Source: Candidatus Dojkabacteria bacterium
GTDB taxonomy: Bacteria > Patescibacteriota > Dojkabacteria > SC72
Direction of reading: 5' to 3'
Assembly (NCBI GenBank): GCA_012842045.1
Contig: DUTP01000002.1
Coordinates: 35,601 to 99,600, forward strand
DNA length: 64,000 nucleotides
Shown: positions 7,404 to 25,360 of the stretch, one piece after another
How positions within the stretch are numbered: position 1 is the stretch's first letter
How the letters are laid out: each line of letters opens with the position of its first letter
Translations under genes and position numbers: made by a program
Notes under the pieces: model-generated
What the model saw: only the letters and a program-made list of their open reading frames with translations
Database searches by the model: none
Told to the model about the DNA's origin: nothing

Positions 7404-7425
7404 TTAATTAAAAACTATAACAAAG

Positions 7426-7457: not shown

Positions 7458-7470
7458 TATTTCCGTAACC

Positions 7471-8637: not shown

Positions 8638-8687
8638 TAATATTTTAAATAAAAAATTAAATACATCTTAATTTTAACAAGTTTTAA

Positions 8688-8715
8688 TTGTTTTGATAAG
8701 TAATTGGGGTATAAT
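8688..8715 (+). promoter_or_regulatory. sigma70-like promoter TTGTTT-16 nt-TATAAT at the head of the glycan gene cluster
   Basis: -35 at 8688-8693 and -10 at 8710-8715. The -10 ends 6 nt before the ATG at 8722, so the transcript could be leaderless. Confidence 0.3.
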
Positions 8716-8721
8716 GGGTCA

Positions 8722-9573
8722 ATGAAAATACTAATAGTCATAGTAAACTACAATGGAAAGCACCTTCTAGAGAAGAATCTTCACTCTGTTGTTGAGAATG
8801 GATATGAGGATTCAGATATTGTAGTTGTCGATAATGCATCTGTAGATGGTAGTATTGAATATCTTAAACAAGAATTTCCTTCTGTAAAGATAGTTGAGAG
8901 TAGAGAGAACTTAGGTTTTGGTAGAGGAAATAATTTGGGTGTTAAGGAGTATCCCAACTATGATGCATACCTTTTCCTAAACAATGATATCTCTGTACCC
9001 AAAGGATTTTTAGACAATCTAGTCAAAGAATTACAAAAAGAAAATGTTGGAGCAGTTGGTCCAAAGGTTTTGTATTCTAAAGAAAAGGTAGGAAGTGAGA
9101 AGAGAATCATTAATTCTGCAGGAATAGAGGTTGATGATCACTACATGGCATATGATAGATACGATAAGGAAGAAGATAAACCTAAATACAATGTAGTAGA
9201 GGAAGTTGATGCACTCATGGGTGGAGCATTTTTAATTAAAAGGGATGTTTTTGAAAAAGTAGGAGGTTTCAATTCTAATATGTTCCTGTACTATGAGGAC
9301 ATCGATCTTTCACTTAGGATTAGGGATTTAGGGTATAAACTTTACTACGTAGGAACATCAGAGGTATATCATGACCATATGGCATCTTCTAAAAGTTTAG
9401 GTACTAGAAAGAGGAACATCATGAACATGCAAAACAGATTTAGAAGCATACAGAGTAGAAAGGGTATTTGGGTGGCAATAAGGGAGGTAATCTGGTATCT
9501 TTTTAACTGGTTAGTATGGAAAATGATATACTCTAGGAGAATTACTTTAAAAGAATTTTTAAAGGAGAAATAA
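8722..9573 (+). CDS. family-2 glycosyltransferase
   Basis: ILIVIVNYNGKHLL ... VVVDNASVDGS is an N-terminal GT2 signature. The ORF-track start at 8704 is a TTG upstream of a -10 box, so the ATG at 8722 is preferred. Confidence 0.8.
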   Translation: MKILIVIVNYNGKHLLEKNLHSVVENGYEDSDIVVVDNASVDGSIEYLKQEFPSVKIVESRENLGFGRGNNLGVKEYPNYDAYLFLNNDISVPKGFLDNLVKELQKENVGAVGPKVLYSKEKVGSEKRIINSAGIEVDDHYMAYDRYDKEEDKPKYNVVEEVDALMGGAFLIKRDVFEKVGGFNSNMFLYYEDIDLSLRIRDLGYKLYYVGTSEVYHDHMASSKSLGTRKRNIMNMQNRFRSIQSRKGIWVAIREVIWYLFNWLVWKMIYSRRITLKEFLKEK

Positions 9574-10346
9574 TGAACAAGAATGATTTAGACCTTTACA
9601 AACAATTTGTAAAAACAACTTTCAAGATGAGATACAAAGGCTCTATCTTGGGTTTCTTTTGGGTTCTTCTTAAACCTTTCTTTATGTTCCTCATTCTCTT
9701 CCTAATCTTCTCACATACAGCATCAGCAGTTGGAGGTCTTACACAGCAACAATATGCCGTCTATCTTCTCTCAGGATTGATAGTATATACATTCTTTAAT
9801 GAAGGTATGATTTGGGGTATGGGTTCAATAATGGAAAGAGCTCAGTTGATTGTTAAAATCAACTTCAAAAGAGATGTAGTAGTTGCTAGCTCTCTAAGCA
9901 TGGCACTTATTAACTTCTCAATTAACCTCTTAATTGTACTTGTAGTGGCATTAATACTGAAAATCAATATCAGTCTAATTGGCCTTGCATATGTTTTTCT
10001 CATAGGTCTTACCATGTTTCTATCTCTTTACGGTGTCTCCTTCTTTACCAGTATATGGCTTGTTCATGTAAGAGACTTGCAACATATTATGGAGCTTGTT
10101 TTACAACTTCTCTTCTATGCTAGTGCGGTATTTTTCCCAGTTGAAATGATTCCAGAGAAGTACAGATTCATTGTCTACTACAACCCAATGGCAAGATTTG
10201 TAAAAGCTGTAAGAGAAGCATTAATATTTGGAGAAGTTACAGATCTAAAGTTTGTCATTCTAGCTTTGGCTGTCTCAATAGTTTTAGTAATTCTTGGGAA
10301 GATATATTTTAACAAACATATTAAAAAAGTAGCTGAACATTTTTAA
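9573..10346 (+). CDS. ABC-2 type polysaccharide/teichoic-acid exporter permease (Wzm/TagG-like)
   Basis: Six TM segments and the N-terminal FKMRYKGSILGFFWVLLKPF motif typical of Wzm/TagG. Overlaps the upstream GT2 by 1 nt. Confidence 0.85.
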   Translation: MNKNDLDLYKQFVKTTFKMRYKGSILGFFWVLLKPFFMFLILFLIFSHTASAVGGLTQQQYAVYLLSGLIVYTFFNEGMIWGMGSIMERAQLIVKINFKRDVVVASSLSMALINFSINLLIVLVVALILKINISLIGLAYVFLIGLTMFLSLYGVSFFTSIWLVHVRDLQHIMELVLQLLFYASAVFFPVEMIPEKYRFIVYYNPMARFVKAVREALIFGEVTDLKFVILALAVSIVLVILGKIYFNKHIKKVAEHF

Positions 10347-10350
10347 AAAT

Positions 10351-11085
10351 ATGGAAGATAATGTAGCAATAAAAGTAACAAATTTAACAAAGAGATTTAG
10401 AATACCAGAACATGGTTCTCCTACTACTTTGCAAGAGAGATTTGTAAATCCTTTTGCAAAGAAGAAGATGATTGACTTTGTTGCTCTTAAAGATCTCTCT
10501 TTTGATGTTAAAAAGGGAGAGTTCTTTAGTGTAATTGGTCCTAATGGTGCAGGTAAGTCTACATTGTTAAAGTTAATATCAGGAATATATATCCCTGATG
10601 GAGGTAAAATTGATGTTAATGGTAAGCTTGTTCCTTTCTTGGAATTAGGTGTTGGTTTTAATCCGGATCTTAGTGCAAAAGAGAATGTATATCTTAATGG
10701 TACAATTCTTGGTCTTACCGAAAAAGAAATTAATGAGAGTGTAGATGATATCTTTGATTTTGCTGAGCTCAAGGAGTTTGAAGACCTTTCCATTAAAAAG
10801 TTTTCATCTGGTATGCAGGTTAGATTAGCATTTTCAATTGCAATTAGAGTTAAGTCAGATATTTTAGTACTTGATGAGGTATTAGCTGTAGGCGATGGAG
10901 AGTTCCAAAAGAAATGTTTTGCATATTTTGATGATATTGTTGGTAAGAAGACAATACTGTTTGTATCTCATGGGTTAGAGAGTGTAAGAAGATATTCCGA
11001 TAGAGTACTTTGGTTAAAGGAAGATAAGACATATGAGATAGGGGAGCCTAATGATATTGTTGATAGATATAGTGCTACCTTTTAG
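10351..11085 (+). CDS. ABC exporter ATP-binding protein (Wzt/TagH-like)
   Basis: Walker A GPNGAGKST, signature FSSGMQVRLAFSIA, Walker B ILVLDEVLAVGD. Confidence 0.9.
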   Translation: MEDNVAIKVTNLTKRFRIPEHGSPTTLQERFVNPFAKKKMIDFVALKDLSFDVKKGEFFSVIGPNGAGKSTLLKLISGIYIPDGGKIDVNGKLVPFLELGVGFNPDLSAKENVYLNGTILGLTEKEINESVDDIFDFAELKEFEDLSIKKFSSGMQVRLAFSIAIRVKSDILVLDEVLAVGDGEFQKKCFAYFDDIVGKKTILFVSHGLESVRRYSDRVLWLKEDKTYEIGEPNDIVDRYSATF

Positions 11086-11109
11086 CAACTTAAGTTACTA
11101 CTAGAATAT

Positions 11110-12987
11110 ATGAGGATAATTGAACTTTTTCAGAGGATAGTAAGTAGAATTCCAATATATTTCAAACAACTAATTACCTCTTTTAAAAAACATGGTATCT
11201 TAAATACCTTCAAGAGAATATTAAAAAAGATTTGGAGATTTGTAATAACTGGTGGAGATGGTTCTAAGCTAATGAGAATATCATATGGGGAATGGATGGA
11301 GAATGTAGAGAGTAAGTATCTCAACGAAGAATCAATGAAGAGAGATTTGAAGAAACTTAAGGTTAATCCTAAGTTTTCAATAGTATTTCCTGTGTGGAAT
11401 AAGTCTGAAGAGATGTTACAAGCAGCCTTGGATTCAATTACTTCACAGGTATATGATAATTGGGAGATATGTATATCTGATGGTTCTACTAAGAATGTTA
11501 AAGAGACGAGAGAGTTTCTTAAGAACTTTGCTAAGAAGTATGGTAAGAAGGTTAAGTTTTCTACGATTGATATTGAAGGAATTAATATAATTGAGAATAG
11601 TAATAATGCATTGAGTTTGGCAACTGGAGAGTATGTTGTCTTTATGGATTGTGATGATGAGATATCTAAGAATTGTTTGTTGGAGTTAGCTAAGGGTATT
11701 GAAAAACATCCTGAAGTAGAATTCATGTACAGTGATTTTGATAAGATTGATGAAAACGGTAAAAGGTTTGATCCTTCTTTTTGGCCTGATTGGTCTCCCC
11801 ACACACTTACAGCACAGATGTATACAACTCATGTTACTTGTTACCGTAGGGATGTAGTAGAGGAGTTAGGAGGACTTGTTAAGAGTACTGAGGGTGCGCA
11901 GGATTGGGATTTAGTAATGAGATATCTTACAAGAGGGAATTGGAAGGTTTTACATATTCCTAAGATACTCTACCATTGGAGGGTATATCCAGGTTCTACT
12001 GCTTTAGCAGGTAGTGGTGCTAAGAGTTGGGCATACGAGAATCAGAGAGCAGTACTAGAGAGATATCTTGAGAGGAGAAAATTAAAGGGAGAGGTGCTAG
12101 AAGGTCCTTTTGAAGGAGCTTGGAGAATTAAGTTTAACATTATCGGTAATCCTAAAGTTAGTATTGTGATACCAACTAAGGACAAGGTGGATTACTTAGA
12201 AAGAGCAATTGATAGTATTTGGGAACATACGAAATATAAAAATTATGAAATAGTTATAGTTGATAACAGGAGTGAAGAGGAAGAAACAAAGGAGTATTTT
12301 GAAGAGATTAAAGAGAAAGGTGTTAAGGTTTTGGAATATGATAAACCATTTCATTTTGGTAAGTTGTATAACTGGGCAGCTACTAAGGTTGATGGTGAAT
12401 ATATGTTGGTACTTAATAATGATGTTAAGGTTCTTAATGATGATTGGTTAGAGAGTATGTTAGAGTGGGCTCAATTACCAGAAGTAGGTAGTGTAGGAGC
12501 TAAGCTTTACTATCCTGATGGTAAGATTCAACATGCAGGAGTAATTGTTGGTGCTGGAGGAGCAGCTGCACACTCTCATAGGTTGTTAGATGGAGATGTA
12601 TTTGGTTATGAGGGTTGTGTTGTTAATGTCAGAAACTATTTAGCAGTTACAGGAGCTTGTATGATGGTAAGCCGAAAGCTCTTTTTAGATATGGGAGGTT
12701 TTGATGAACAGTTTGATCCTGCGTATCAAGATGTTGATTTTGGAATTAGGTTGTATGATGAGAAAGGTTTGTTCAATGTATATACCCCTTATACAGAACT
12801 CATACATTATGAATCTGTGACTAGGTTTGATAGTAAGAACAAAGAAAAATTAGAGAAGGATACAGTTAATGCAGAGAAATTAAGAAAGAAATGGCCACAA
12901 TATATTGAATATATGGGAGGTAGGGACCCTTTCTACAATGACAACCTATCCTACGCCCATGAAGATTTTAGGATAAGAAGAGAGTAG
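11110..12987 (+). CDS. two-domain family-2 glycosyltransferase
   Basis: Two successive GT2 cores (PKFSIVFPVWNKSE... and PKVSIVIPTKDKVDYLERA...), each with DxD-type motifs. This architecture is usual for Wzm/Wzt-dependent polymerising glycosyltransferases. Confidence 0.8.
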   Translation: MRIIELFQRIVSRIPIYFKQLITSFKKHGILNTFKRILKKIWRFVITGGDGSKLMRISYGEWMENVESKYLNEESMKRDLKKLKVNPKFSIVFPVWNKSEEMLQAALDSITSQVYDNWEICISDGSTKNVKETREFLKNFAKKYGKKVKFSTIDIEGINIIENSNNALSLATGEYVVFMDCDDEISKNCLLELAKGIEKHPEVEFMYSDFDKIDENGKRFDPSFWPDWSPHTLTAQMYTTHVTCYRRDVVEELGGLVKSTEGAQDWDLVMRYLTRGNWKVLHIPKILYHWRVYPGSTALAGSGAKSWAYENQRAVLERYLERRKLKGEVLEGPFEGAWRIKFNIIGNPKVSIVIPTKDKVDYLERAIDSIWEHTKYKNYEIVIVDNRSEEEETKEYFEEIKEKGVKVLEYDKPFHFGKLYNWAATKVDGEYMLVLNNDVKVLNDDWLESMLEWAQLPEVGSVGAKLYYPDGKIQHAGVIVGAGGAAAHSHRLLDGDVFGYEGCVVNVRNYLAVTGACMMVSRKLFLDMGGFDEQFDPAYQDVDFGIRLYDEKGLFNVYTPYTELIHYESVTRFDSKNKEKLEKDTVNAEKLRKKWPQYIEYMGGRDPFYNDNLSYAHEDFRIRRE

Positions 12988-12989
12988 CT

Positions 12990-14336
12990 ATGAAAAAAAA
13001 GAAAAGAAAAATAGAGTGGAAGAAAATAAACAAGATAATACTTACAGTACAGTTAGTTATATTTTTTGTTTTTGGTCTCTTTCTTGCACTAAATATTAGA
13101 ACAAATATTGGTCCTGATGAGCCTCACCACTTCTATGTAGCACATGCATATTCTGAAACTTGGGGAGTACCCGAAAACACACCAGCAACATATCAGTTTG
13201 GAGATATTACATCGGCCAATGTTCTAGCACATTGGATCAATGCAAGGTTGTTAAATATGAATTTCCTTAAGGTCGATGAACTACATCTTCTAAGAATATT
13301 CAACCTCTTAACTTCCGTTGGTGCACTACTTCTGTTCTACAAATTAACAGGATATGTAATTAAGAAGGAGAAGTATCGCACTATCCCTGTCATCCTTCTA
13401 GCAAACACCCTTATGTTCCAATTTCTTTCTGGAATGATTAACTATGATAATCTCACCAACTTTTTTGCAGTACTTTCAATAATCTACTTTGTGAAGATAT
13501 TTAAAGAGCCAAAAGAGATAAAGAACTACGCGTTATGGGCAATCTTTACTTGTTTAGGTGTTCTTACAAAATATACAATTTTTCCACTTGCTCTAGTAGA
13601 ATTCATCTTAATTATCAGTATCCTCATCAAAGAGAAAGTGAAGTTTAATATGAAGGAGAAGAAGTTTTGGTTGTATGTACTTCTTGTTTTAATCTTTCTT
13701 CTACCAGTAGTTCTCTTGTATGGAAAAAATATTGTTACATACAAACATCTTTTTCCTCGTTGTGAAGAAGTTATGACAGTTGAGCAATGTATGAACAGTG
13801 GTGTTTTTAGAAGGGACTATGGACAGTCAGCAGGGATAAAGTTGTTAAGTAAAGAGGGGATAGGAATGGTCTTCTCGAGAAGGTGGAATCCTGTTAAATA
13901 CTTCTTAAAATGGTCTTGGGAGATGAATCATAGGATCTATGGCATTATGGCTCACAAAGACATGTTTATGCCACACAATCTTCATCTTACCTTTGCAATA
14001 TATCCAATATCATTTGTGTTTCTTTTTCTCAAAGATCTAAAGAAAAAAGAGAAGTTAGATATCTACCTACTAATAGTTCTTCTCTTCTATACCTTCGTTC
14101 TAGCATTTGTACAAAACTATCCAACATATCTAAACAGAAATGGTGTGATATTTGCTCTTCAAGGAAGATATATCTTTCCTGTAATATTCATCTACTATAC
14201 TCTTCTAGTGAAATATATTGGAGAAATTAAGAATAAATATGTGAGAATATTGTTCTTTGTAATACTCATAACAATGTTTCTTCTCTCTTGTATTCCATTC
14301 TTCCTTTTGAGTGTTACACCGGATTGGTTTGTTTAA
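12990..14336 (+). CDS. polytopic membrane protein, GT-C-fold (ArnT/PMT-like) glycosyltransferase candidate
   Basis: 10 or more TM helices and a first-loop DEPHHF motif that resembles the DE motif of GT39/GT83 enzymes. Confidence 0.55.
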   Translation: MKKKKRKIEWKKINKIILTVQLVIFFVFGLFLALNIRTNIGPDEPHHFYVAHAYSETWGVPENTPATYQFGDITSANVLAHWINARLLNMNFLKVDELHLLRIFNLLTSVGALLLFYKLTGYVIKKEKYRTIPVILLANTLMFQFLSGMINYDNLTNFFAVLSIIYFVKIFKEPKEIKNYALWAIFTCLGVLTKYTIFPLALVEFILIISILIKEKVKFNMKEKKFWLYVLLVLIFLLPVVLLYGKNIVTYKHLFPRCEEVMTVEQCMNSGVFRRDYGQSAGIKLLSKEGIGMVFSRRWNPVKYFLKWSWEMNHRIYGIMAHKDMFMPHNLHLTFAIYPISFVFLFLKDLKKKEKLDIYLLIVLLFYTFVLAFVQNYPTYLNRNGVIFALQGRYIFPVIFIYYTLLVKYIGEIKNKYVRILFFVILITMFLLSCIPFFLLSVTPDWFV

Positions 14337-14384
14337 TATGTATCTTTGGAATATAATAGCTTAGTTATTTTACAAAAAACACAT

Positions 14385-15659
14385 ATGAAAAAAGTATCAA
14401 TAGTAGGACTTGGTTATGTTGGATTACCACTAGCTCTTGCAATAGAGAGGAGTAAGAAGTATGAAGTGGTAGGTTTTGATATTAGTAAAGATCAAGTTAA
14501 GAAAATACTCTCAAAGGAGTGTCCCATTACAGATGAGCTAGCAGAGAGAGACCTTAATGAATTAGATCTTCATGCAACAACAGATAGTGATGAGTTAAAG
14601 GATACGGATATCTTCATCATATGTGTACCTACACCTGTTCTTGATGACTATACTCCAGACTACACACCTGTAATTAGTGCAGGTAAAACAATATCTAAGT
14701 ACTTAAAGAAAGGTGCTACTGTTGTTTTAGAATCAACAGTTAATCCAGGTACATGTGAAGAAATTTTAGTTCCTGTTTTGGAGGAAGGTAGTAAGTTAGT
14801 TGCAGGTAAAGATTTCAATGTAGCTATGTGTCCTGAGAGAATTAATCCTGGTGACCCTAAGTGGAATGTTTACAATATTCCTAGGAATATTGGTAGTCTA
14901 ATGAAAGAGAAAACAAAAGAGATTGCTGATTTCTACAGAAGTTTCTTAGATGCAGAGATTAATGAGGTATCTACTATCAAGGTGGCTGAATCTACAAAGA
15001 TTGTTGAGAATGCATTTAGAGATATTAATATTGCATATGTTAATGAGCTTGCTAAATCTTTTGATGCAATGGATATTGATCTAATTGAAACTCTAAAGGG
15101 TGCTTCTACCAAACCTTTCTCTTTCATGGTACATTGGCCAAGTAGGGGAGTTGGGGGACATTGTATTGCAGTTGATCCATATTACTTAATCAAAAGGGCA
15201 CAGGAAGCAGGTTTTGATCACAGATTCTTGAAGATAGCTAGAGATATTAACAACAGTATGCCAGAGTATACAGTATCTAGATTGCAAGAGGGACTTAATG
15301 AGATAGAGAAGTCAGTAAAGGGTACTAAGGTTGGATTACTAGGTTTAAGTTACAAATCTAATGTAGCAGACCTTAGAGAGAGTCCTAGTTTAGAGATATT
15401 GGATATATTAAAGAAAATGGGTGCAGAGGTAATATCATATGATCCTCATACATTAGATATCTCTGATGTGAAAGAATTAGATGATTTGTTGGAGAAAGTA
15501 GATGCCGTTATACTAGGTACATATCATGATATCTTTGGTGATTTAACAGAAGAGATACTTAAGAGGAAGAATATCAAGGTGGTGGTAGATGGGGTGAATA
15601 AGTTGGATAAGGAGAGGTTAGTAAAAGGTAAGGTGATATATAGAGGAATTGGGAGATAA
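14385..15659 (+). CDS. UDP-sugar 6-dehydrogenase family (UDP-glucose/UDP-ManNAc dehydrogenase)
   Basis: N-terminal Rossmann IVGLGYVGLPLA and the catalytic-cysteine region GGHCIAVDPYY. The ATG at 14385 is preferred over the track start. Confidence 0.85.
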   Translation: MKKVSIVGLGYVGLPLALAIERSKKYEVVGFDISKDQVKKILSKECPITDELAERDLNELDLHATTDSDELKDTDIFIICVPTPVLDDYTPDYTPVISAGKTISKYLKKGATVVLESTVNPGTCEEILVPVLEEGSKLVAGKDFNVAMCPERINPGDPKWNVYNIPRNIGSLMKEKTKEIADFYRSFLDAEINEVSTIKVAESTKIVENAFRDINIAYVNELAKSFDAMDIDLIETLKGASTKPFSFMVHWPSRGVGGHCIAVDPYYLIKRAQEAGFDHRFLKIARDINNSMPEYTVSRLQEGLNEIEKSVKGTKVGLLGLSYKSNVADLRESPSLEILDILKKMGAEVISYDPHTLDISDVKELDDLLEKVDAVILGTYHDIFGDLTEEILKRKNIKVVVDGVNKLDKERLVKGKVIYRGIGR

Positions 15660-15679
15660 TTTTAAAATAACATAATACT

Positions 15680-17696: not shown

Positions 17697-17725
17697 TAGT
17701 CTACTTAATCTAATTATTCGATATT

Positions 17726-18337
17726 ATGAAAGAATTTACAGGCAAATATACTGATAGTGGGAAGATAGGAAATATGCTCCTAGATAACTATTTTCGTTCT
17801 CTGGAAATATTACTTAATAAAATACCTAAGCAAGAATTGAAGAACAGAAAGATTCTTGAAGTTGGTTGTGGTTCTGGTTACTCTACCGAGAGAATTAAAG
17901 AAATGCTTCCTAAGAATGTGGAATTTACTGCTTCAGATATAGAAGATGAGAATGTAAAGAATGCTAAAAAGAAGCTAGGTAAATCTTTCGTTGTGACTAA
18001 AGAGAGCGTTTATGATTTACAAAGAAAAGACAAATCGATAGATTTGATATTTTTGTTAGAGGTATTAGAACATTTAGAATACCCAGATAAAGCGTTAAAA
18101 GAACTTAAGAGAGTAGGTAGAAATTATGTAATAATAGGTGTTCCAAGAGAGCCCATCTGGAGAATCTTGAATATGGCTCGTCTTAAGTATTTGAAAGATT
18201 TTGGTAACACTCCTGGTCATATACAGCATTGGGGTAGGAGATCTCTTTTGAAATTCCTTAAGAGTAAGGGATTTGAAATAGTAGGAGTAGAGAATCCTCT
18301 TCCTTGGACTATAGTTCTAGTAAAGATATCAAAATAG
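17726..18337 (+). CDS. class I SAM-dependent methyltransferase
   Basis: Motif I ILEVGCGSGYST, followed by an acidic residue and the post-I/II pattern. Confidence 0.75.
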   Translation: MKEFTGKYTDSGKIGNMLLDNYFRSLEILLNKIPKQELKNRKILEVGCGSGYSTERIKEMLPKNVEFTASDIEDENVKNAKKKLGKSFVVTKESVYDLQRKDKSIDLIFLLEVLEHLEYPDKALKELKRVGRNYVIIGVPREPIWRILNMARLKYLKDFGNTPGHIQHWGRRSLLKFLKSKGFEIVGVENPLPWTIVLVKISK

Positions 18338-18338
18338 A

Positions 18339-19295: not shown

Positions 19296-22095
19296 ATTAA
19301 AAAATTTTTATCAGAAGAACAAAAATGTCATAGAAATAATTAGTTTGATATTTTTAGTTATTGTTATATTTATCCTTTTTTTTCACAAATTTTTCATTAA
19401 AGGCGAATTGGTAAATGCCTCAAGTTTTCTTTATCTTTGGTATCCTTGGGCTAAAGTTCGTCCAGAAAATTTAACAGGAATACAAAATTTTATAGTAAGT
19501 GATTGGGTAGACTTTCATATCCCTTCTTTCACATATGTCAAAAATGCCAGCTTGAAATTAATTGCTAGTGGGTATAGTTTCAGATCAAGTTGGGGAACTC
19601 CATCTGGGAGTATTATGGGCATTGTTACTATTCATGAACCATTGATACTGTTTTTCATAAAAGTGTTTAAAGAGCAACTGGGAGCAACCTTGTTGTTTAT
19701 TGCCAAACCTGTGTTAGCTTTTATTGGTGCCACTCTTCTTTTTAAAGAGTTAAAATTAAACAGGTATGTATCACTACTTTGCAGTTTATCTTTTGCTTTC
19801 AGTGTGCCTGTAATATCATTTATCTATGGAACACCAATAACTGGTATTGTTGCTCTTGTTTTTATTTTCTACTTTGTTGTTAGACTGTCGAAAACCTTGA
19901 GTGTAAAAAACATAGTGTTTTATGTTTTATCAACAATATGGCTAATAACTACTGGGTTCCCATCAACAATTATGTATGGGGTGATTTTTTCTTTTCTGTT
20001 ATTTGTTTTTCTTGTTTTAACGAATAAGGATTTTGATAAAAAAAAGAAGATTCAGATAATTTCTTTTTTTACAATTGTTAATTTACTCATTTTAGGTATT
20101 TGGGCTTGGAGTATTCTTCCTAATCTAACCAATTTACGTGGTGTTGATTTAAGATACAGAGAAGGTTATGGTGCTAAAAAATTGCATGGAAGTCATTTCC
20201 TTCAGTGGTTATATCCAAACTTTTGTGGTAATGCTACAACTATACCTCGGGTTTGTGATTCAAACTGGATTGAAACATCAACATCTTCAGGTATTGTTTC
20301 GCTGATTACCCTTTTTCTTGGATTACCAGCAATTCTGTTTAAACATAAAAACAGGAGATTCTTTCTTTACTTTCTATTTATAACTTGTTTTTCTTTCTTC
20401 TTAATATTTAATGTTGGGGGCATTACAGAGATTGTTGCCAAGTTGCCTCTATTCTCTATTTCTCCTAGTACTAGATTAGTCTTTCTAATTCCATTACTAA
20501 CAACTGTTTCAGCATGTTTATCCTTTGATATTATTTTGAAAGAATGTAAAAATAAGGAGAATAGACAGAAAATCATACTCTTTTGGGTTGCGATTGGAGT
20601 TGTGATTGCCATAATTTTTAGCATTAATTTTGATAAATTGACAGGACATCTGCGGTTATTAGATAGACCTTCTTTAATAAGAGATGCTAAAGAATTCTTA
20701 GTTGTTGCAGTTTTAGGTTTAACTATTCTTCTTCTAACCTTATTTATAAAAAACAAGCTTATAAAGAAAGTTTTATTAGTAATATTGTCTCTTATTGCTG
20801 TCTTTGACTTATATTTTTATAATTCCAATTTCCTACCTTATCTGAAGGAAGAGTATGTTTTTCCTATGACAGAAGGTATAGAGTATTTACAAAAAAACAC
20901 TAAACCAGAAGATAGAATTTTCGCCATAGAGAGAGTTTTTCTTCCTAATACCAATTACTATTACGGTATCAACTCACTAACAGGGCATGATTGGAGGACA
21001 GAGGCTTTTAATGAGGCAATGCAACCTATTGAGGAAGGGGTGTTTAAGCATGCAGGTACAATGCAGTTCTTTAATCGAGTAAAAGTACGGATTTCTTCTG
21101 AAGATATCAAAAATTATTTAAGATTTAATAGGATAAAGTACATTGTGCAGGGTCCTTCATCACTAAACCCTGAAGATGATGTAGCTTTTATTCAGTCTAA
21201 TGTTAGTGACTATATTAATGTAAAAGAACCTATTAAATATATTATTGATATTAGCCAGCCTGAGGTTTTGGAAAATATTCATTTAAGAGGTTTGTGTAAT
21301 AGTGAAATGAAAGAAATTTTTGGTAAGAACGATGTTAGAGTAAATGTTATTGATGAAAAAGGAGAGTCATTATTAGTACCAATATTAGAAATCAATTCTA
21401 AATGTGTAGGCGAAGATTACTTAAAAATACGAACAGCAAAAGTAAAGCTTGAAGAAAATTCAAAATTAAGTTTGGAGATACTAAATTCTAAAAATTGGAA
21501 ACTAGCTGCTTATTCAGCTCAAGATATAAGAAAAGATACTACCTTAGAAGGGAATATTAATACATATGAATTGGTAGGCATGATATTTGCTAGGGTGTCA
21601 GAAAAAGAGATTTACCCAAAGGTTCACGATAAGGGGGACTTATTGATTCATGCAGTATCCGAAAAGACTTCCACAGCATATTTTTATTCATGTAAAGATT
21701 TGAGTGATGAAGAATGTAAAAACAATTTAAAGAACTTTAAGATTACTAATCCTAGGGATTTAAGAGAGTTTAATGAGGTTTTTCAGACATTTCAAGAGGT
21801 TCCCTTTAATTATTATAAAGAGGGAGAAATGTCTTTTGACACATCAGGAGTTAATGAACGAGGAGTTATTATTTTAAGTGATAACTATTTTAAAGGTTGG
21901 AATTCCAAAGAAGGAGAGGTGTTTAAAGGATTTCTTGGTAGTATGAATATTTTTGTTGAAAAGCCAGGGGATAGTGTCAATCTTAGTTATACGAATGAAT
22001 ATCTGTTAGCAGGGATTATAATTTCGGTGATTTCAACATCTTTACTTGCAGGTTTATTGTTGTTCTATAGAAAGAAGAAACTACTTGTGGAGTAA
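19279..22095 (+). CDS. large (938 aa) polytopic membrane protein, YfhO-like GT-C glycosyltransferase candidate
   Basis: Roughly 14 TM segments in the N-terminal 500 aa, a large extracytoplasmic C-terminal domain and a final TM helix. The size and topology match the YfhO family. Confidence 0.55.
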   Translation: MKLLSRLKNFYQKNKNVIEIISLIFLVIVIFILFFHKFFIKGELVNASSFLYLWYPWAKVRPENLTGIQNFIVSDWVDFHIPSFTYVKNASLKLIASGYSFRSSWGTPSGSIMGIVTIHEPLILFFIKVFKEQLGATLLFIAKPVLAFIGATLLFKELKLNRYVSLLCSLSFAFSVPVISFIYGTPITGIVALVFIFYFVVRLSKTLSVKNIVFYVLSTIWLITTGFPSTIMYGVIFSFLLFVFLVLTNKDFDKKKKIQIISFFTIVNLLILGIWAWSILPNLTNLRGVDLRYREGYGAKKLHGSHFLQWLYPNFCGNATTIPRVCDSNWIETSTSSGIVSLITLFLGLPAILFKHKNRRFFLYFLFITCFSFFLIFNVGGITEIVAKLPLFSISPSTRLVFLIPLLTTVSACLSFDIILKECKNKENRQKIILFWVAIGVVIAIIFSINFDKLTGHLRLLDRPSLIRDAKEFLVVAVLGLTILLLTLFIKNKLIKKVLLVILSLIAVFDLYFYNSNFLPYLKEEYVFPMTEGIEYLQKNTKPEDRIFAIERVFLPNTNYYYGINSLTGHDWRTEAFNEAMQPIEEGVFKHAGTMQFFNRVKVRISSEDIKNYLRFNRIKYIVQGPSSLNPEDDVAFIQSNVSDYINVKEPIKYIIDISQPEVLENIHLRGLCNSEMKEIFGKNDVRVNVIDEKGESLLVPILEINSKCVGEDYLKIRTAKVKLEENSKLSLEILNSKNWKLAAYSAQDIRKDTTLEGNINTYELVGMIFARVSEKEIYPKVHDKGDLLIHAVSEKTSTAYFYSCKDLSDEECKNNLKNFKITNPRDLREFNEVFQTFQEVPFNYYKEGEMSFDTSGVNERGVIILSDNYFKGWNSKEGEVFKGFLGSMNIFVEKPGDSVNLSYTNEYLLAGIIISVISTSLLAGLLLFYRKKKLLVE

Positions 22096-23028
22096 TCCTC
22101 TTACCTTCCTCACCAACTTAACAACAGTATTTTTTAAAATCCTATTGTTAATAGCTTTATCCCATATCCTATACCCAGGATTGTTTCTAATTATCTCTAT
22201 TCCTGCTCTCTGTTTCTCAAATTCATTTTCATAAAAACTTTTAATATGTTTGAGGTCTCCAATCCTAATGACTGTCTCTTTATCTTTTAGCCGATTGTCA
22301 GTTGTCTCTCTGGATTTTAACCACTTTTCATAATTATCTTCATTAAAAGTATCAGTAATATCATTTCTTCTCCTATACTCTGATATTGGTACATCTAATT
22401 GTATAAAGGAAAACTCTTCTTTTAATATTAATTGTTTAAGAAAATCCCAATCCTCTAGATATGTCATATCTTCATTAAACTTAACACCGTCTAACAAGCT
22501 TGTTTTTAGGATAAATGTATTAAAAGGAATAAAGTTTTCTAAAAGTAGGAGAGGTTTTGAAAACTCTTGATAAGGTCTCTTAGCTTTAGAAACAGTATAG
22601 AGATATTCCTCACCTGCAATGTTTGTCTCTAACCTTTCAATAACATCTATACTTCTTCCTAGTGCAAATGTTTTATCATTATCTTCTAATGCTTTTATCA
22701 AAGTTGAACCCATATTTGGATAATAGATATCATCATCATCCAAAAAAGATAAATATTCACAATCTAAGTTTTTAAGTGCGGCATTAAGAGGGTAGGATCT
22801 ATTACCTTGCTTATCTCTTAAAACAATCGGTTTGATGTTAAGCATCTTTTGGAAAGGCTTGATGAATGAAAGAGTTTTTTCTATTATCTTTTCGTTATTA
22901 CTATGTATCATCAACAAGACCAAAAGATTCTCATATGTTTGAGCTATTAGTGAGTTAAGAGCATTGTTTAATTCTAGCTCTAAACCCTTTCCTTGTGTTC
23001 TTAGTACAACTGTCCACTTACCTTTCAT
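22081..23028 (-). CDS. family-2 glycosyltransferase
   Basis: VVLRTQG ... SLIAQTYENL ... FLDDDD is an N-terminal GT2 core with a DxD motif. Its 3' end overlaps the convergent YfhO-like gene by 15 nt. Confidence 0.7.
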   Translation of the reverse strand: MKGKWTVVLRTQGKGLELELNNALNSLIAQTYENLLVLLMIHSNNEKIIEKTLSFIKPFQKMLNIKPIVLRDKQGNRSYPLNAALKNLDCEYLSFLDDDDIYYPNMGSTLIKALEDNDKTFALGRSIDVIERLETNIAGEEYLYTVSKAKRPYQEFSKPLLLLENFIPFNTFILKTSLLDGVKFNEDMTYLEDWDFLKQLILKEEFSFIQLDVPISEYRRRNDITDTFNEDNYEKWLKSRETTDNRLKDKETVIRIGDLKHIKSFYENEFEKQRAGIEIIRNNPGYRIWDKAINNRILKNTVVKLVRKVRGLLHK

Positions 23029-23901
23029 TTACATTACCCATCTAAAATTAGTATAGTCTTGGTTCTTGTCTATGAACCTTCTAAAATAGGTTCTCTTCTT
23101 TAAAGTCTTTTTCATTTCTTGGAACTTCTTTAGTATCTCTTTTCTATGTGGATCATCTTTACCAATGAGGTTTATATATCTTTCTACATCTTTATCTGTA
23201 GAGAGTTTATATCTTAAGTATAGTTCTGCAGCTTGTTTGTTTATTCTTGTAAAATCACTTTCTTCAGATACATCGGTATCCTTTGTCAAGTGAGTAAATT
23301 GAGCATTGGGTAAATGTAAGATTTTATATTTATTCATCCTCATTCTCATTGAAAGATCAACATCCTCTCCATACATGAAAATATTTTCATCAAACATTCC
23401 AATATTTTCAAATGCTTTAGAGTTTATTACTGTTCCTGCACCCGAGATCCAATTTGTTTCCAAGGTCTGAGGGTTAAAGTACTTAGGATGTTCACTTGGA
23501 AACTGTGCTAATTCTAGTAAACCCCAATTGACATCTTTAAGTTGTTCTAAGTATTTGACAATGTTGTCTATGAGATTGTGATGAATAATACTGTCTGGAT
23601 TTAATATGATAAAAGAATCTCCGTATGAATCTTTGTTCTTTCTATATACTTCATTATGTCCCTTGCCAAAACCATAGTTGGGTTGCTTATTTAGTGTGAT
23701 TTTGATGCTTTCTCCTATGTTTTTCTTTGATTGTTCAATAATATCTTTGACTTTAGTGAACTCCTTGGTGTCTTCTGATTGATCAACAAAGTGAAAATAT
23801 GTTAATAATTTTGTTTTTTCTAAGACTTCTATGCTTTTTAATAATTTTACCAAGTCATTACTTGAAAAGTATAGAAGAATTTGAATATCTAGTCGTTTCA
23901 T
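23029..23901 (-). CDS. family-2 glycosyltransferase (rhamnosyl/galactosyl-transferase-like)
   Basis: GFGKGHN ... ILNPD ... YGEDVDLSMR, typical GT2 motifs. Confidence 0.75.
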   Translation of the reverse strand: MKRLDIQILLYFSSNDLVKLLKSIEVLEKTKLLTYFHFVDQSEDTKEFTKVKDIIEQSKKNIGESIKITLNKQPNYGFGKGHNEVYRKNKDSYGDSFIILNPDSIIHHNLIDNIVKYLEQLKDVNWGLLELAQFPSEHPKYFNPQTLETNWISGAGTVINSKAFENIGMFDENIFMYGEDVDLSMRMRMNKYKILHLPNAQFTHLTKDTDVSEESDFTRINKQAAELYLRYKLSTDKDVERYINLIGKDDPHRKEILKKFQEMKKTLKKRTYFRRFIDKNQDYTNFRWVM

Positions 23902-23902
23902 T

Positions 23903-25360
23903 TTATTTTTCTTTTATCTTACTCTTAATCTTACGATATTTTTCTAATGTCTGCCAAATCCTTCCTTTCTTAAAGGATTGGAACTCTTCAATTTCTAGTT
24001 TATTCTTATCAATTTGTTCTTCTAGGGCACTATTCTTTTGTTCAATAGATTTTACATACTCATATTCTGAATATTTCTCAATATCATTTATCTCTTTCTC
24101 CTCAAGCCCATGTGTTGTTTTAAGTATCTCTCGTAATGAGATGTCTTTGGTATTATTAATTCCAACTTTATCAAAAATATAATTCTGATGTTTTTTGTAG
24201 ATATCAATAATAGGAGGGTTTGTTAATCGCCATTCTATATACTCTTGCTTTAACATTAAATCCCAAGGGACATAATATCCAAAGATCATAAAGTTAAGGT
24301 ATTCGGTATCAACAACAGATTCATCTTCGTATTGGAAGTGATTGATAGATTTAAATGAAAACGGCATATTATCACTTAATAGATACACAGTTTTACCAAG
24401 CAACATCGCATCAAATGCTATATTAGAAACATATGTTAGGATTCTTTTGCATTTTGATATCCAATAGGTGGCTCTTGGTGATTTGTCTAAGTACCAATCA
24501 GGATGTCCTATCTCTCTGTCAGGTTCTATCCTATGCCTTATCGTTACTTCATTTGGTGTGAACAGTTTATTTATAGTAGCAAGTGTTTTGTCAAGAGATT
24601 CATTCTTATGTATTTCGTACAAGTAATCATTTTTAAATGGAGGAGATATACCTAATTCATAAACAGGTGGCTTTTGTAATTCTTTTATCAGTTTTAAATC
24701 CTCAGTATAGAGGAGTAGGGCGAGTAATTCTTCTCTAGATAGTATCTTTAAGCTTTTATTTCTTTCCTTTTTAAATTCGTGAAATAGTTTTAGGCAATAG
24801 TCATTGTCAAATTTATCGGTAAAAGAGAAATATGACAATGTCATTCTATAGTTAACCTTTCTAACAGAGGATAATTCTTGAGTAATTAAGTGTAAGTTTC
24901 TTTTTTTCGAAATACTCGCAAGACTAGGATTCCAATACCAAGTGAGTATCGCATCTACTTTTTGAGAATAATCTTTCTCTATCTTGTCTAATTTGTTGTT
25001 GATAAATTCAATGTAATTTGTATTGGTATTGGATATAAAGTTGATTTGGTCTTTAAGTGTTGCTCTCTTCCCTCCGCTTATACTCAGTGTTTCTTCGTTT
25101 GTTATTGAATATTTTTTAAATTTTTTGGTCTCTGCATTTACTTTTCTCTTTTCTTCAATATCCTCATTAGGTTTCTCATATGTTTCATTTAATGCATTAA
25201 TTTCTTGGTTAAAAAAGTTTTCTTGAGCTATTAGTGGCATATTATTATTAACACTGTAGTTCGAGTACATCTCAAACACCCAACTTAAAAGAGGTTTTTC
25301 TGTATAGTAATGAAAAGCATCAAACACTATTGGGACGACAAGTTTTTTCTTTGTACTCAT
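23903..25360 (-). CDS. capsule-polysaccharide-biosynthesis-like protein (KpsC/KpsS family-like), putative glycosyltransferase
   Basis: The C-terminal segment ILTYVSNIAFDAMLLGKTVYLLSDNMPFSF resembles the conserved VvTinStvGfEAlllGkpV motif of the capsule-synthesis (PF05159-type) family. The C-terminus is coiled-coil. Weak call. Confidence 0.45.
   Translation of the reverse strand: MSTKKKLVVPIVFDAFHYYTEKPLLSWVFEMYSNYSVNNNMPLIAQENFFNQEINALNETYEKPNEDIEEKRKVNAETKKFKKYSITNEETLSISGGKRATLKDQINFISNTNTNYIEFINNKLDKIEKDYSQKVDAILTWYWNPSLASISKKRNLHLITQELSSVRKVNYRMTLSYFSFTDKFDNDYCLKLFHEFKKERNKSLKILSREELLALLLYTEDLKLIKELQKPPVYELGISPPFKNDYLYEIHKNESLDKTLATINKLFTPNEVTIRHRIEPDREIGHPDWYLDKSPRATYWISKCKRILTYVSNIAFDAMLLGKTVYLLSDNMPFSFKSINHFQYEDESVVDTEYLNFMIFGYYVPWDLMLKQEYIEWRLTNPPIIDIYKKHQNYIFDKVGINNTKDISLREILKTTHGLEEKEINDIEKYSEYEYVKSIEQKNSALEEQIDKNKLEIEEFQSFKKGRIWQTLEKYRKIKSKIKEK

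Follow-up and report, generated by a model that had tools for sequence, protein, structure and literature searches.

A cell-surface polysaccharide locus of Candidatus Dojkabacteria with an ABC exporter and a putative lipid-linked side-chain cassette

[quoted passage not shown] Published pathways for Rha-CWPS, the cell wall polysaccharides that are rich in rhamnose, share the design of the locus described here (PMC9574508), which corresponds to that of the streptococcal and lactococcal systems with a few parts swapped and also matches that of Klebsiella O-antigen systems. Because this design is familiar, the locus is less unusual than the label "composite", applied to it in a sequence-only reading of the same DNA, would suggest.

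Extent and recurrence of the locus

Spanning about 25 kb (8704-33898), this cell-surface polysaccharide locus belongs to Candidatus Dojkabacteria, an uncultivated, ultra-small member of Patescibacteria. Positions refer to the whole stretch of DNA analysed (64 kb, hereafter the window), and genes lie on the plus strand unless stated otherwise. Domains were assigned to all genes of the locus with Pfam and NCBIfam profiles, and every open reading frame named in the sequence-only reading was recovered in its place with the domains ascribed to it. That gene list had omitted a GT4 glycosyltransferase (16617-17696) and a GT99-like gene (23903-25360), and its count of five GT2 enzymes holds only if the GtrB-like synthase is included. 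The rmlBACD genes and one GT4 gene extend the locus rightward to about 33898.

Eleven plus-strand genes are tightly packed, with intergenic gaps of -17 to +29 nt. Many metagenomes carry the identical locus and other species keep its core, which rules out chance clustering. Another Dojkabacteria genome, at 56% identity, retains the order dehydrogenase, GtrB-like, methyltransferase, UPF0104, YfhO-like, GT2 and GT2, followed further on by rmlBACD and GT4.

Proposed polymer synthesis, termination and export

The Wzm-type ABC-2 permease (9573-10346, Pfam ABC2_membrane) has galactan Wzm and KpsM as its best NCBIfam matches, and among PDB chains it comes closest to Aquifex Wzm (6m96_B, E 1.9e-18), mycobacterial Wzm and TarG. 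The Wzt-type ATPase (10351-11085, Pfam ABC_tran) scores 180 bits against TagH and 167 bits against galactan Wzt, compared with 113 bits against the DrrA profile; its nearest solved structure is Aquifex Wzt (6amx, E 2.9e-53), followed by TagH/TarH and Mtb RfbE. With Aquifex Wzm-Wzt, TarGH and the mycobacterial galactan exporter as nearest solved relatives, the pair is supported as the glycan exporter that had been proposed, rather than a lipid or drug exporter. At 244 amino acids, Wzt consists of the nucleotide-binding domain only and lacks the carbohydrate-binding domain that is present in every characterised terminated O-polysaccharide system.

The exporter genes are flanked by a GT2 gene (8704-9573, Pfam Glycos_transf_2, 73 bits) and by a 625-amino-acid protein with two Glycos_transf_2 stretches (11110-12987), a candidate backbone polymerase whose nearest PDB chain, chondroitin polymerase 2z87, likewise has two GT2 domains. 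The order GT2, Wzm, Wzt, double GT2 is kept in loci L010, L011 and L068. Two further GT2 genes lie on the minus strand: one at 22081-23028 (Glycos_transf_2, 42 bits), whose homologue stays beside the YfhO-like gene in L001-L006, and a divergent one at 23029-23901 (Glyco_tranf_2_3, 30 bits). The first GT2 and the divergent GT2 match the rhamnosyltransferase profile TIGR01556 weakly (65.7 and 34.8 bits); both scores are far under the cut-off, and a rhamnosyltransferase assignment is correspondingly weak.

The supply of rhamnose is clearer. RmlB, dTDP-glucose 4,6-dehydratase (26541-27557; GDP_Man_Dehyd 269 bits, Epimerase 214 bits), the long form of RmlA (27576-28664; TIGR01208 348 bits, cut-off 320), RmlC (30494-31045; dTDP_sugar_isom 225 bits) and RmlD (31062-31964; RmlD_sub_bind 222 bits) are followed by a GT4 gene (32705-33898, Glycos_transf_1) that probably marks the right end of the locus; in L002-L005 and L089 a GT4 likewise follows rmlD. 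The proposal of a rhamnose-containing glycan is strengthened by these rml genes, which adjoin the locus here and in its relatives.

The GT99-like, WbbB-type glycosyltransferase (23903-25360, minus strand) combines an N-terminal Glyco_transf_99 domain (42 bits) with a C-terminal helical tail and matches WbbB in the PDB (5fa0, E 7e-9). Its invariant E161 and R166 correspond to E158 and R163 of WbbB, but it has an arginine in place of the essential histidine of the WbbB HP motif. Its tail, at residues 455-484, also occurs in proteins of L003 and L011 whose catalytic parts have no significant similarity. Members of this family carry coiled-coil tails, and each of the six contexts examined is a rhamnose/ABC glycan locus. 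The acceptor of WbbB is rhamnose, and glycan terminators typically combine a coiled coil with a C-terminal region for membrane binding or recruitment (PMC9587256, PMC11231755). The GT99-like enzyme is a candidate chain terminator that fits this role better than the methyltransferase considered below.

A small monotopic phosphoglycosyltransferase (Bac_transf 194 bits; TIGR03025 236 bits), encoded with two GT4 enzymes (both Glycos_transf_1) at 43772-46734, is the window's sole initiating enzyme. This block lies about 18 kb away, with SecA, an M23 peptidase, LiaF and further housekeeping genes between it and the locus, and its membership in this glycan pathway, where it had been assigned the supply of the lipid-linked primer, is uncertain. 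Domain searches of the 64-kb window detected neither an initiating enzyme of the WecA/TagO type nor an LCP ligase or a transferase of the O-antigen-ligase type, and Kdo and nonulosonic-acid synthesis genes are likewise absent from it.

The proposed lipid-linked donor cassette and the GT-C enzymes

The NDP-sugar 6-dehydrogenase (14346-15659; TIGR03026 386 bits, over its cut-off) is closest to UDP-HexNAc dehydrogenases, with 288 bits for UDP-ManNAc dehydrogenase and 240 for TviB compared with 173 and 139 for UDP-glucose dehydrogenases; in L010 a UDP-GlcNAc 2-epimerase is encoded two genes downstream of it. The next gene encodes a GtrB/DPM1/ArnC-like polyprenol-phosphate sugar synthase (15680-16627), a GT2 domain with two C-terminal trans-membrane helices, which matches AglJ (143 bits), Dol-P-hexose transferase (101 bits) and PpgS (83 bits) among NCBIfam profiles and ArnC (9hwj, E 9e-12) and DPMS (5mlz, E 8e-10) in the PDB. 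The GT4 enzyme that follows (Glycos_transf_1, Glyco_trans_1_4) also has counterparts in the cassettes of L011 and L094. The SAM-dependent methyltransferase (17726-18337; Methyltransf_11/25/23) had been suggested as a possible chain terminator. It accompanies GtrB-like, UPF0104 and GT-C genes in L001-3, L011, L013, L020, L032 and L094, and this co-occurrence makes it more likely a member of the donor cassette. In L094, from a distant Patescibacterium, five parts of the cassette (GT2, UPF0104, GT4, methyltransferase and YfhO) are found together.

The candidate flippase for lipid-linked sugars is a UPF0104/LPG_synthase_TM (PplT) protein (18339-19295; PF03706 109.6 bits) with about seven trans-membrane segments, which also exceeds the cut-off of the flippase-like family TIGR00374. 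We infer this role from family membership and gene context. It seems unlikely that the protein instead translocates phospholipids, the function proposed for stand-alone PplT, or serves a GT-C enzyme as an accessory subunit, with flipping carried out by a protein encoded elsewhere. In favour of that reading, MprF's translocation of aminoacyl-phosphatidylglycerol is the one activity in the family with experimental support, the UPF0104 profile has no match among solved structures, and the shared flippase CflA of L. lactis is encoded apart from the glycosyltransferase pairs. Against this stands the tight coupling to GT-C genes: the UPF0104 gene overlaps the next one by 17 nt, and a homologue precedes and overlaps a GT-C gene of the 448-amino-acid family described below in 26 of 38 Patescibacteria loci, with coupling to GtrB-like genes in several. 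Moreover, archaea retain a trio of AglD-like GT2, UPF0104 and PMT/STT3-like enzyme, some archaeal AglD proteins are fused to a UPF0104 domain (PMC5898192), and the window contains no GtrA, Wzx or MATE candidates.

Two large membrane proteins complete the set. The first, of 448 amino acids (12990-14336), is a GT-C glycosyltransferase of the DUF2142/PMT_2 type (PMT_2/PMT) with a DEPHHF motif at residues 43-48, right behind the first trans-membrane helix, and without the soluble domain that oligosaccharyltransferases have at the C-terminus. The second is a polytopic protein of 938 amino acids (19279-22095); its extracytoplasmic domain is beta-rich, and it has a trans-membrane anchor at the C-terminus. 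DUF7657 is its only Pfam match, but profile alignment with PF09586-bearing proteins (hhalign, 100% probability, E 5e-42, 535 columns) places it in the YfhO superfamily, in agreement with the YfhO-like character first read from its sequence. D75 is unchanged in 15 of 15 sequences, and the AlphaFold model (pLDDT 78.6) has PglB, STT3, AftD, AglB and ArnT as top Foldseek matches. The GT-C fold anticipated for both proteins was seen in the structure predictions. There are two GT-C enzymes but one synthase, an imbalance that counts against the explanation we prefer.

Proposed pathway and alternatives

The exporter relatives, GT-C folds and YfhO homology together support the coexistence of an ABC-dependent glycan pathway with an extracytoplasmic set of GtrB-like, flippase-like and GT-C proteins. 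We consider it reasonably probable that this is a rhamnose-rich wall-polysaccharide-type locus, in which Wzm/Wzt exports a polymer and a separate cassette supplies lipid-linked side chains for transfer outside the membrane. By family assignment, RmlA-D produce dTDP-rhamnose. The polymer would be built on a polyprenol carrier by cytoplasmic glycosyltransferases of the GT2 and GT4 families, the two-domain GT2 among them. The GT99-like enzyme may cap or limit the chain while its coiled-coil-like tail binds the membrane or a partner, and Wzm/Wzt, a known exporter family whose substrate is here predicted, would move the polymer across the membrane without a cap-reading domain. For the side-chain donor, the dehydrogenase would provide a probable HexNAc-uronic acid, the GtrB-like GT2 would transfer a sugar to polyprenol phosphate, the GT4 and methyltransferase could extend and methylate the lipid-linked sugar, and the UPF0104 protein would flip it outward. 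Outside the membrane, the YfhO-type and DUF2142/PMT_2-type enzymes would transfer the donor onto either the exported polymer or a different acceptor in the envelope.

It is improbable, in our estimation, that two independent pathways merely lie side by side, one making a self-sufficient ABC-exported polymer and the other glycosylating envelope proteins (cf. Ppm1/Pmt and PgfS/PgfM) or a membrane glycolipid. Most UPF0104-GT-C pairs in Patescibacteria do lack Wzm/Wzt or a double GT2 within 10 kb, and positions 47335-49776 encode a large surface protein rich in repeats. Yet the gene for the 448-amino-acid GT-C begins 2 nt behind the double GT2, within the exporter operon, here and in L010, L011 and L012. 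In 22 of 79 loci its family stands next to a double GT2, and in six it lies near Wzm; the former pairing extends to Chloroflexota and the association with Wzm/Wzt to L066, L068 and L085. The acceptor, for its part, is not predictable from the ranking of GT-C folds. A glycan of the Geobacillus stearothermophilus S-layer type, a capped rhamnan exported by Wzm/Wzt and transferred en bloc to a surface protein by a GT-C acting as oligosaccharyltransferase, is very unlikely: it would suit the AglB, PglB and STT3 matches of both GT-C enzymes, the small WbaP-like phosphoglycosyltransferase in place of WecA, the methyltransferase and rml genes, and the WsaF-type rhamnosyltransferase beside a GT99-like homologue (L093), but the window has neither a Wzy_C/O-antigen-ligase-type O-oligosaccharyltransferase nor a recognisable S-layer protein gene, the 448-amino-acid GT-C lacks the oligosaccharyltransferase-type soluble domain, and the GtrB-like synthase points to monophosphate-linked donors rather than en-bloc transfer.

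Within the rhamnose-rich wall-polysaccharide reading, the locus also varies between close relatives. DNA identity between sister strains falls sharply past about 16.6-17.7 kb, and these strains have a replaced arm right of UPF0104, a strain-to-strain exchange that resembles serotype-determining loci. In other Patescibacteria most UPF0104-GT-C pairs have no ABC exporter nearby, so their acceptor need not be an ABC-exported polymer.

Gene content and extent of the locus

Eleven plus-strand genes, with intergenic distances of -17 to +29 nt, form the left part of the glycan locus. Domain matches identify a GT2 glycosyltransferase (8704-9573), an ABC-2 permease (Wzm, ABC2_membrane, 9573-10346), an ABC ATPase (Wzt, ABC_tran, 10351-11085), a 625-aa protein with two GT2 domains (double GT2, 11110-12987), a polytopic 448-aa PMT_2/PMT protein (12990-14336), an NDP-sugar dehydrogenase (14346-15659), a GT2 with two predicted C-terminal trans-membrane (TM) helices (GtrB-like, 15680-16627), a GT4 (16617-17696), a SAM methyltransferase (17726-18337) and an LPG_synthase_TM/UPF0104 protein (18339-19295). 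The eleventh gene encodes a polytopic 938-aa protein, matched in Pfam by DUF7657 (19279-22095). Two GT2 genes (22081-23901) and a gene for a GT99-like 485-aa protein (Pfam PF21912, 23903-25360) follow on the minus strand. Next come the genes for RmlB, RmlA, RmlC and RmlD (26541-31964; RmlA scores above its equivalog cut-off) and, after rmlD, a GT4 (32705-33898). A second block at 43772-46734 encodes two GT4 enzymes and a 230-aa Bac_transf phosphoglycosyltransferase. All ORFs listed in the sequence-only reading were found where it placed them and with the domains it gave; it had missed the GT4 gene at 16617-17696 and the GT99-like gene. Its right boundary at 25360 has to be moved to about 33898, because the rml genes and the GT4 gene after them match the conserved gene order of a relative.

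The closest homologues are annotated as Candidatus Dojkabacteria (WS6, Patescibacteria/CPR). Positions 9279-32095 are 100% identical to a JGI metagenome contig, and the exact 938-aa protein is present in 39 blocks of the assembly collection. In a different Dojkabacteria genome (GCA_012513575.1), where the homologue of the 938-aa protein is 56% identical, the order is dehydrogenase, GtrB-like GT2, methyltransferase, UPF0104, YfhO-like, GT2, GT2, differing genes, rmlB, rmlA, rmlC, rmlD and GT4. The association of rml genes with the locus is conserved in homologous loci from other genomes (L001-L006 and L089). The GT2 and GT4 enzymes have only weak matches to rhamnosyltransferase models. The 64-kb window gave no initiating enzyme of the WecA/MraY type, no LCP or O-antigen ligase, no GtrA and no gene for ulosonic-acid synthesis. 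Neither promoter-like sites (77, versus 85.7 in shuffled controls) nor terminator-like sites (8 versus 7.0) were in excess in a scan of 7400-26600, therefore operon boundaries cannot be drawn from it.

The rest of the window carries housekeeping genes. Among the other genes, SecA (36198-39137) has a length of 979 aa and a DEAD-like match that spans residues 17-459 against a profile of 290 positions, which indicates that about 150 residues are inserted. On the minus strand, at 55251-56203, two dCTP deaminase-like genes (146 and 171 aa) stand in tandem. At 46727-49776, the end of the phosphoglycosyltransferase gene is overlapped by a gene for a short RecO (202 aa), after which comes a gene for an 813-aa protein with repeats of the CarboxypepD_reg/SdrD_B type; this protein may be exposed on the surface and could conceivably be glycosylated.

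The permease and ATPase genes are 4 nt apart, with GT2 genes on both sides. The nearest solved structures for Wzt are Aquifex aeolicus Wzt (E 2.9e-53), followed by TagH/TarH and the ATPase of the mycobacterial galactan exporter (Mtb RfbE); for Wzm they are Aquifex Wzm (E 1.9e-18), followed by mycobacterial (Mtb) Wzm and TarG. In NCBIfam, Wzt scores 180 bits with TagH versus 113 bits with DrrA, and both TagH and the galactan Wzt outrank DrrA and NodI. Thus, by structure-database and NCBIfam ranking, the nearest relatives are glycan and teichoic acid exporters, in agreement with the proposed glycan exporter, and nothing in these rankings points to a drug or lipid exporter. When ORFs of at least 100 aa in the window were scanned, there was no match above threshold to Polysacc_synt, Wzy or Wzy_C, so a Wzx/Wzy pair is absent from the locus. 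An LPS O-antigen was rejected as the product because the window lacks a WaaL/Wzy_C-type ligase, lipid A genes and Kdo genes and because Patescibacteria are not known to have an outer membrane. Teichuronic acid was also rejected; the matches to TuaG, TuaC and TuaD are all far below their cut-offs.

GT-C proteins and the candidate flippase

A GT-C fold was found, and the first loop on the outer side holds an acidic residue that is conserved; in the 448-aa protein, the DEPHHF motif (residues 43-48) lies directly past the first TM helix. The 938-aa protein combines about 13 TM helices with a beta-rich domain on the outer side (residues ~520-905, for which there are weak CBM-like matches), and it ends in a TM helix. 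For its predicted structure (pLDDT 78.6), all 14 Foldseek matches at E <= 0.001 are PglB, STT3, AftD, AglB or ArnT, so the model agrees with the GT-C fold suggested earlier for this protein. Profiles of the two GT-C proteins found no match among solved structures even at E 1-10, and the fold assignments therefore come from predicted structures. The 938-aa protein has no match to Pfam YfhO (PF09586) even at E <= 0.1, its only Pfam match being DUF7657 at 32.6 bits. Its label as "YfhO-like" is nevertheless valid at the superfamily level, because hhalign aligned its close homologues with eight PF09586 proteins at a probability of 100% (E 5e-42, 535 columns). A 56%-identical homologue is named "YfhO family protein" by NCBI. 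About 50 residues past the last helix of the TM bundle, at residues 568-574, the protein has a conserved T-G-H-D-x-R-T motif, which aligns with "GYDP" of PF09586 YfhO proteins and has a position like that of WWDYG in oligosaccharyltransferases.

The GtrB-like protein (GT2 domain at residues 5-165, TM segments at 232-250 and 272-290) has its best matches to AglJ, a Dol-P-hexose transferase, PpgS, ArnC and DPMS, and should, judging from these matches, make a polyprenol-monophosphate sugar. The window contains no match to the GtrA family (PF04138), and the sole flippase candidate is the UPF0104 protein, with about seven TM segments; a related locus, L092, does have GtrA. The UPF0104 profile did not match any solved structure even at E 1-10, and its link to MprF is therefore drawn only from Pfam PF03706.

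We scored the neighbors of 448-aa GT-C relatives with the proteins of the window in 79 loci from species-representative genomes. Among Patescibacteria loci with enough upstream sequence, 26 of 38 have a UPF0104 gene directly upstream of the GT-C gene and overlapping it, by 8-32 nt as called and by 110 nt in one locus; in other phyla such an overlapping upstream gene was found in 1 of 31 loci. The order GtrB-like, UPF0104, GT-C recurs in three loci (L025, L028, L038), and the order (dehydrogenase), GtrB-like, methyltransferase, UPF0104, GT-C in another three (L013, L020, L032). In the window, it is the YfhO-like gene that UPF0104 overlaps, by 17 nt, and the 448-aa GT-C gene starts 2 nt after the double GT2 gene. 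The 448-aa family adjoins double GT2 genes in 15 of 33 Chloroflexota loci and lies near Wzm/Wzt in L066, L068 and L085. Several Chloroflexota loci (Anaerolineae and others; L059, L060, L064, L065, L067, L070) carry alternating arrays (GT2x2, GT-C, GT2x2, GT-C) without UPF0104, which suggests a second, different functional pairing of the 448-aa family.

A flippase role for pfam03706/UPF0104 has been predicted for archaeal glycosylation pathways by Makarova et al. 2015, on the basis of AglD fusions and a conserved neighborhood of AglD-like GT2, UPF0104 and PMT/STT3-like genes (PMC5898192). A preprint names the domain PplT and lists its fusions to glycosyltransferases. The flippases listed in a review of multi-component systems are GtrA and Wzx only (PMC9574508), to which Kelly et al. 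added a MATE flippase. As judged from gene order, the pattern in Patescibacteria is the bacterial counterpart of the existing archaeal prediction and not a new idea.

A distant Patescibacterium (L094), whose YfhO is 28% identical, has a GT2, UPF0104, GT4, methyltransferase and YfhO, the same five components as window 15680-22095. Therefore, the GT4 and the methyltransferase belong with the cassette for the lipid-linked donor, which, by analogy, may be a methylated mono- or disaccharide; in L. lactis, C55-P-GlcNAc is elongated before flipping (PMC9574508). The dehydrogenase has its top scores with UDP-HexNAc dehydrogenases. In L010, a UDP-GlcNAc 2-epimerase (Epimerase_2, 175 bits; L010 13628-14722) fills the slot of the window's GT4, next to the GtrB-like gene on its downstream side and with the dehydrogenase two genes upstream, and in L003 an 88-aa epimerase remnant (L003 1692-1958) retains only its N- and C-terminal ends. 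Taken together, these observations hint at a HexNAc-uronic acid.

A candidate terminator and strain variation

The methyltransferase at 17726 had been suggested as a possible chain terminator. Its SAM methyltransferase domain is confirmed; termination of the backbone is the less likely role, because the gene accompanies the GtrB-like/UPF0104/GT-C cassette even where no exporter lies nearby, and the enzyme is more probably a partner of that cassette. We consider instead the GT99-like protein to be the best terminator candidate, because its architecture seems to resemble that of characterized terminators; in these, a coiled coil follows the catalytic domain, the C-terminus is a membrane or polymerase-recruitment region, and the catalytic type differs between serotypes (PMC11231755).

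The GT99-like protein matches the GT99 N-terminal domain (PF21912) at residues 105-181 with 42.3 bits (cut-off 27) and, collinearly, the structure of the WbbB beta-Kdo transferase (PDB 5fa0) at residues 288-404 (E 7e-9). With these two matches, similarity extends to each of the GT99 subdomains. WbbB caps a rhamnose-containing O-antigen, and its catalytic residues Glu158, Arg163, Asp232 and His265 (the "HP" motif) are conserved in all known retaining Kdo transferases (PMC9587256). In an alignment of 18 family sequences, E161 and R166 are invariant, with the spacing of WbbB E158 and R163, and D244, a candidate nucleophile, is kept in 16. At the HP position (residues 274-277), distant members have R-x-H-P, but R-(H/Y)-R-(I/V) is found in the window protein and in its relatives from Dojkabacteria; an arginine thus stands where WbbB has H265, reported to be essential, with the equivalence set by approximate register and not by structural alignment. 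Because of the altered HP motif, the protein is not an established member of GT99 as that family is defined catalytically.

Members of the GT99-like family occur in rhamnose/ABC-exporter glycan loci in all six contexts examined; the gene adjoins the double GT2 gene in L090 and L091 and lies three genes away from it in L092. The 64-kb window contains no KdsA/KdsB/NeuB-type genes, and a NeuB-type cluster is found beside a GT99-like homologue only in L090. The idea that retention of the HP motif tracks neighboring ulosonic-acid genes held in L090 and failed in L091-L093, and was dropped.

The C-terminal region of the GT99-like protein is, from sequence alone, a charged and helix-prone segment of about 60 residues. 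The last 30 residues (455-484; window 23903-23995) are EIEEFQSFKKGRIWQTLEKYRKIKSKIKEK, with a basic, aromatic consensus (EIEEFxSFKKGxIWxxLEKYRKI...). This tail recurs at the C-terminus of a 315-aa protein beside a methyltransferase (L003 10164-11108, minus strand, E 1e-9) and at that of a Methyltransf_24 enzyme, which matches a coiled-coil Pfam model (L011 19986-20933, minus strand, E 3e-6). The three tailed proteins have no significant similarity beyond the tail, and a regex search over all loci found the motif in these three protein types only. Distant GT99-like homologues have heptad-like repeats followed by SW(K/R)(I/V)TxP(I/L)R, with the W-x6-R spacing unchanged. It seems possible from these sequences that the shared tail may be a common docking or membrane-binding peptide.

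One observation counts against the GT99-like protein as a terminator. All characterized terminated systems carry a carbohydrate-binding module (CBM) on Wzt (PMC11231755). The Wzt of the window has none; it has a length of 244 aa and aligns to the nucleotide-binding domain only, compared with 404 aa for full-length Aquifex Wzt, and therefore a cap cannot gate export in the known way. The Wzt proteins of L090, L091 and L092 (242-248 aa) likewise lack this module.

The right part of the locus differs between close relatives. Compared with the two closest species representatives, the DNA remains 92-94% identical from 8.6 kb up to about 16.6 kb (L010) or 17.7 kb (L011); identity then collapses near the GT4, methyltransferase and UPF0104 genes, with the downstream arm replaced. 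The alignments suggest that the break at about 16600-17700 is a recombination breakpoint like those of serotype switching. The right arm of L011 encodes a GT2-GT4 fusion, a 522-aa protein with about ten hydrophobic segments and no Pfam match, and the tailed methyltransferase; that of L010 encodes GT2 enzymes and a protein of 653 aa that has about 14 TM segments and likewise matches nothing in Pfam. Thus, the arm with the YfhO-like, GT2, GT2 and GT99-like genes is one of several alternatives, as in serotype loci.

Small mobile- or defense-like genes inside the locus (window 25580-26431 and 28745-30420) also vary between near-identical strains. KilA-N is present in the window, L005 and L006 and absent from L004; NYN, SocA/Panacea and a 134-aa ORF occupy the interval from rmlA to rmlC in the window and in L006; in L004, L005 and L011, an inserted AAA_14/DUF4143 gene separates Wzt from the double GT2 gene; and a RhuM gene follows rmlD in L004 and L005.

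Relation to known systems and implications

An ABC-dependent rhamnan combined with extracytoplasmic multi-component glycosylation is the established model for streptococcal GAC/SCC and lactococcal cwps (PMC9574508), and analogous combinations are known for enterobacterial O-antigens and for mycobacterial arabinogalactan. The locus most likely works like the streptococcal and lactococcal Rha-CWPS systems (GAC gacA-L, S. mutans SCC/rgp, L. lactis cwps, S. thermophilus rgp); we do not file it as a member of that family, because the review excludes loci of poor homology (PMC9574508). Shared features are adjoining rmlA-D genes, GT2 and GT4 enzymes including a large multidomain GT, an ABC exporter without a carbohydrate-binding domain (RgpC/D, GacD/E there), strain-variable regions and, as proposed for the locus, side chains added outside by a GT-A polyprenol-P-sugar synthase, flippase and GT-C; in L. 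lactis, elongation of the lipid-linked donor takes place in the cytoplasm and precedes flipping, which may also hold here. S. thermophilus rgp loci hold a pair of "large multidomain GT + DUF2142 membrane protein" (PMC9574508, PMC9746298). The differences are that the host is a Patescibacterium and not a Firmicute, that the flippase candidate is UPF0104/PplT and not GtrA or Wzx, and that the GT99-like enzyme stands in place of the proposed RgpE cap. Additionally, the window lacks a GacJ/WpsB-type activator, a GroP transferase, and a TagO/WecA (PNPT) or LCP gene, and has a small WbaP-like transferase, a possible initiating enzyme for this polymer, 18 kb away.

ABC-dependent O-polysaccharide systems with coiled-coil terminators (E. 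coli O9a/K. pneumoniae O3 WbdD-WbdA; K. pneumoniae O12/R. terrigena WbbB) share with the locus Wzm/Wzt, a polymerase-like GT2 enzyme of several modules, a domain of the GT99 type (in the prototype, it caps a chain that contains rhamnose) and an apparent succession of catalytic domain, coiled-coil-like segment and basic aromatic C-terminal tail. Between serotypes of these systems, a glycosyltransferase and a methyltransferase can replace each other as terminator (PMC11231755, PMC9587256). In contrast to them, the locus has a Wzt without a CBM, a short helical segment of about 60 residues, no visible CMP-Kdo pathway, an arginine for the HP-motif histidine in this subfamily, and neither an outer membrane nor a lipid A-core to serve as acceptor.

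Three-component systems (GtrA/GtrB/GtrC; B. subtilis/Listeria CsbB-GtcA-YfhO; Citrobacter GT136 with a MATE flippase) likewise have a membrane-anchored GT2, a polytopic putative flippase, and GT-C transferases that include a YfhO homologue whose outward domain is large (PMC5836110, PMC8035078, PMC11127046). Here, however, UPF0104 replaces the GtrA-family protein, two GT-C proteins are present per synthase, and the cassette adds a dehydrogenase, a GT4 and a methyltransferase, so the donor may be a modified mono- or disaccharide. With the archaeal trio of AglD-like GT2, UPF0104 (arCOG00899) and PMT/STT3-like (arCOG00563) the locus shares three families in one conserved neighborhood (PMC5898192), and several of its genes have best matches of archaeal type, namely AglJ, the archaeal UDP-ManNAc dehydrogenase and long-form RmlA; it differs in being bacterial, in lying inside an ABC-exporter/rhamnose locus, and in encoding UPF0104 on its own, in overlap with the gene for the GT-C, and in both cases the role is a prediction. 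Mycobacterial arabinogalactan synthesis (GlfT2, Wzm/Wzt Rv3781/Rv3783, GT-C arabinosyltransferases, PpgS/Rv3779 GalN decoration) is similar at the family level only: it has a cytoplasmic GT2 polymerase, a Wzm/Wzt pair that is among the best matches to the window's exporter, and GT-C glycosylation outside with polyprenol-phosphate sugars, PpgS being among the GtrB-like matches, whereas the locus has no decaprenyl-phosphoarabinose pathway or galactofuranose genes and a different flippase family. The differences from known designs are the UPF0104 flippase candidate, two GT-C proteins with one synthase, the enlarged cassette, a GT99-like candidate terminator whose HP motif is altered, the lack of a CBM on Wzt, and the Patescibacteria host.

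We consider it possible, and somewhat short of probable, that the loci represent a distinct Patescibacteria class of multi-component glycosylation, in which UPF0104/PplT, a homologue of the MprF flippase domain translationally coupled to the GT-C, replaces GtrA/Wzx/MATE, as the bacterial counterpart of the predicted archaeal trio. In Dojkabacteria, this system would lie inside a strain-variable rhamnose-glycan locus, where swappable GT99-like or methyltransferase enzymes for tailoring or termination dock via a common 30-residue tail, without a cap-reading domain on Wzt. Current models are not overturned, and the main value of these results is in annotation and experimental targets. UPF0104/PplT, for which flipping of lipid-linked sugars was predicted in archaea in 2015 and which is tightly coupled to GT-C genes in the window and in 26 of 38 related loci, is a concrete candidate for the missing flippase function, and the tail that the exchanged tailoring enzymes have in common points to a docking principle for glycan terminators beyond Gram-negative bacteria.

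Ultra-small and thought to live attached to other microbes, the Patescibacteria (CPR) have cell surfaces that are poorly known, and their surface glycans are probably important in contact with hosts and in recognition by phages. A Dojkabacteria genome well under 1 Mb devotes about 25 kb to a strain-variable, rhamnose-linked glycan on the plan of a Gram-positive wall polysaccharide. If the UPF0104-based class is real, the locus, at about 3-4% of a genome of about 0.65-0.73 Mb, could be a main determinant of surface identity towards hosts or phages.
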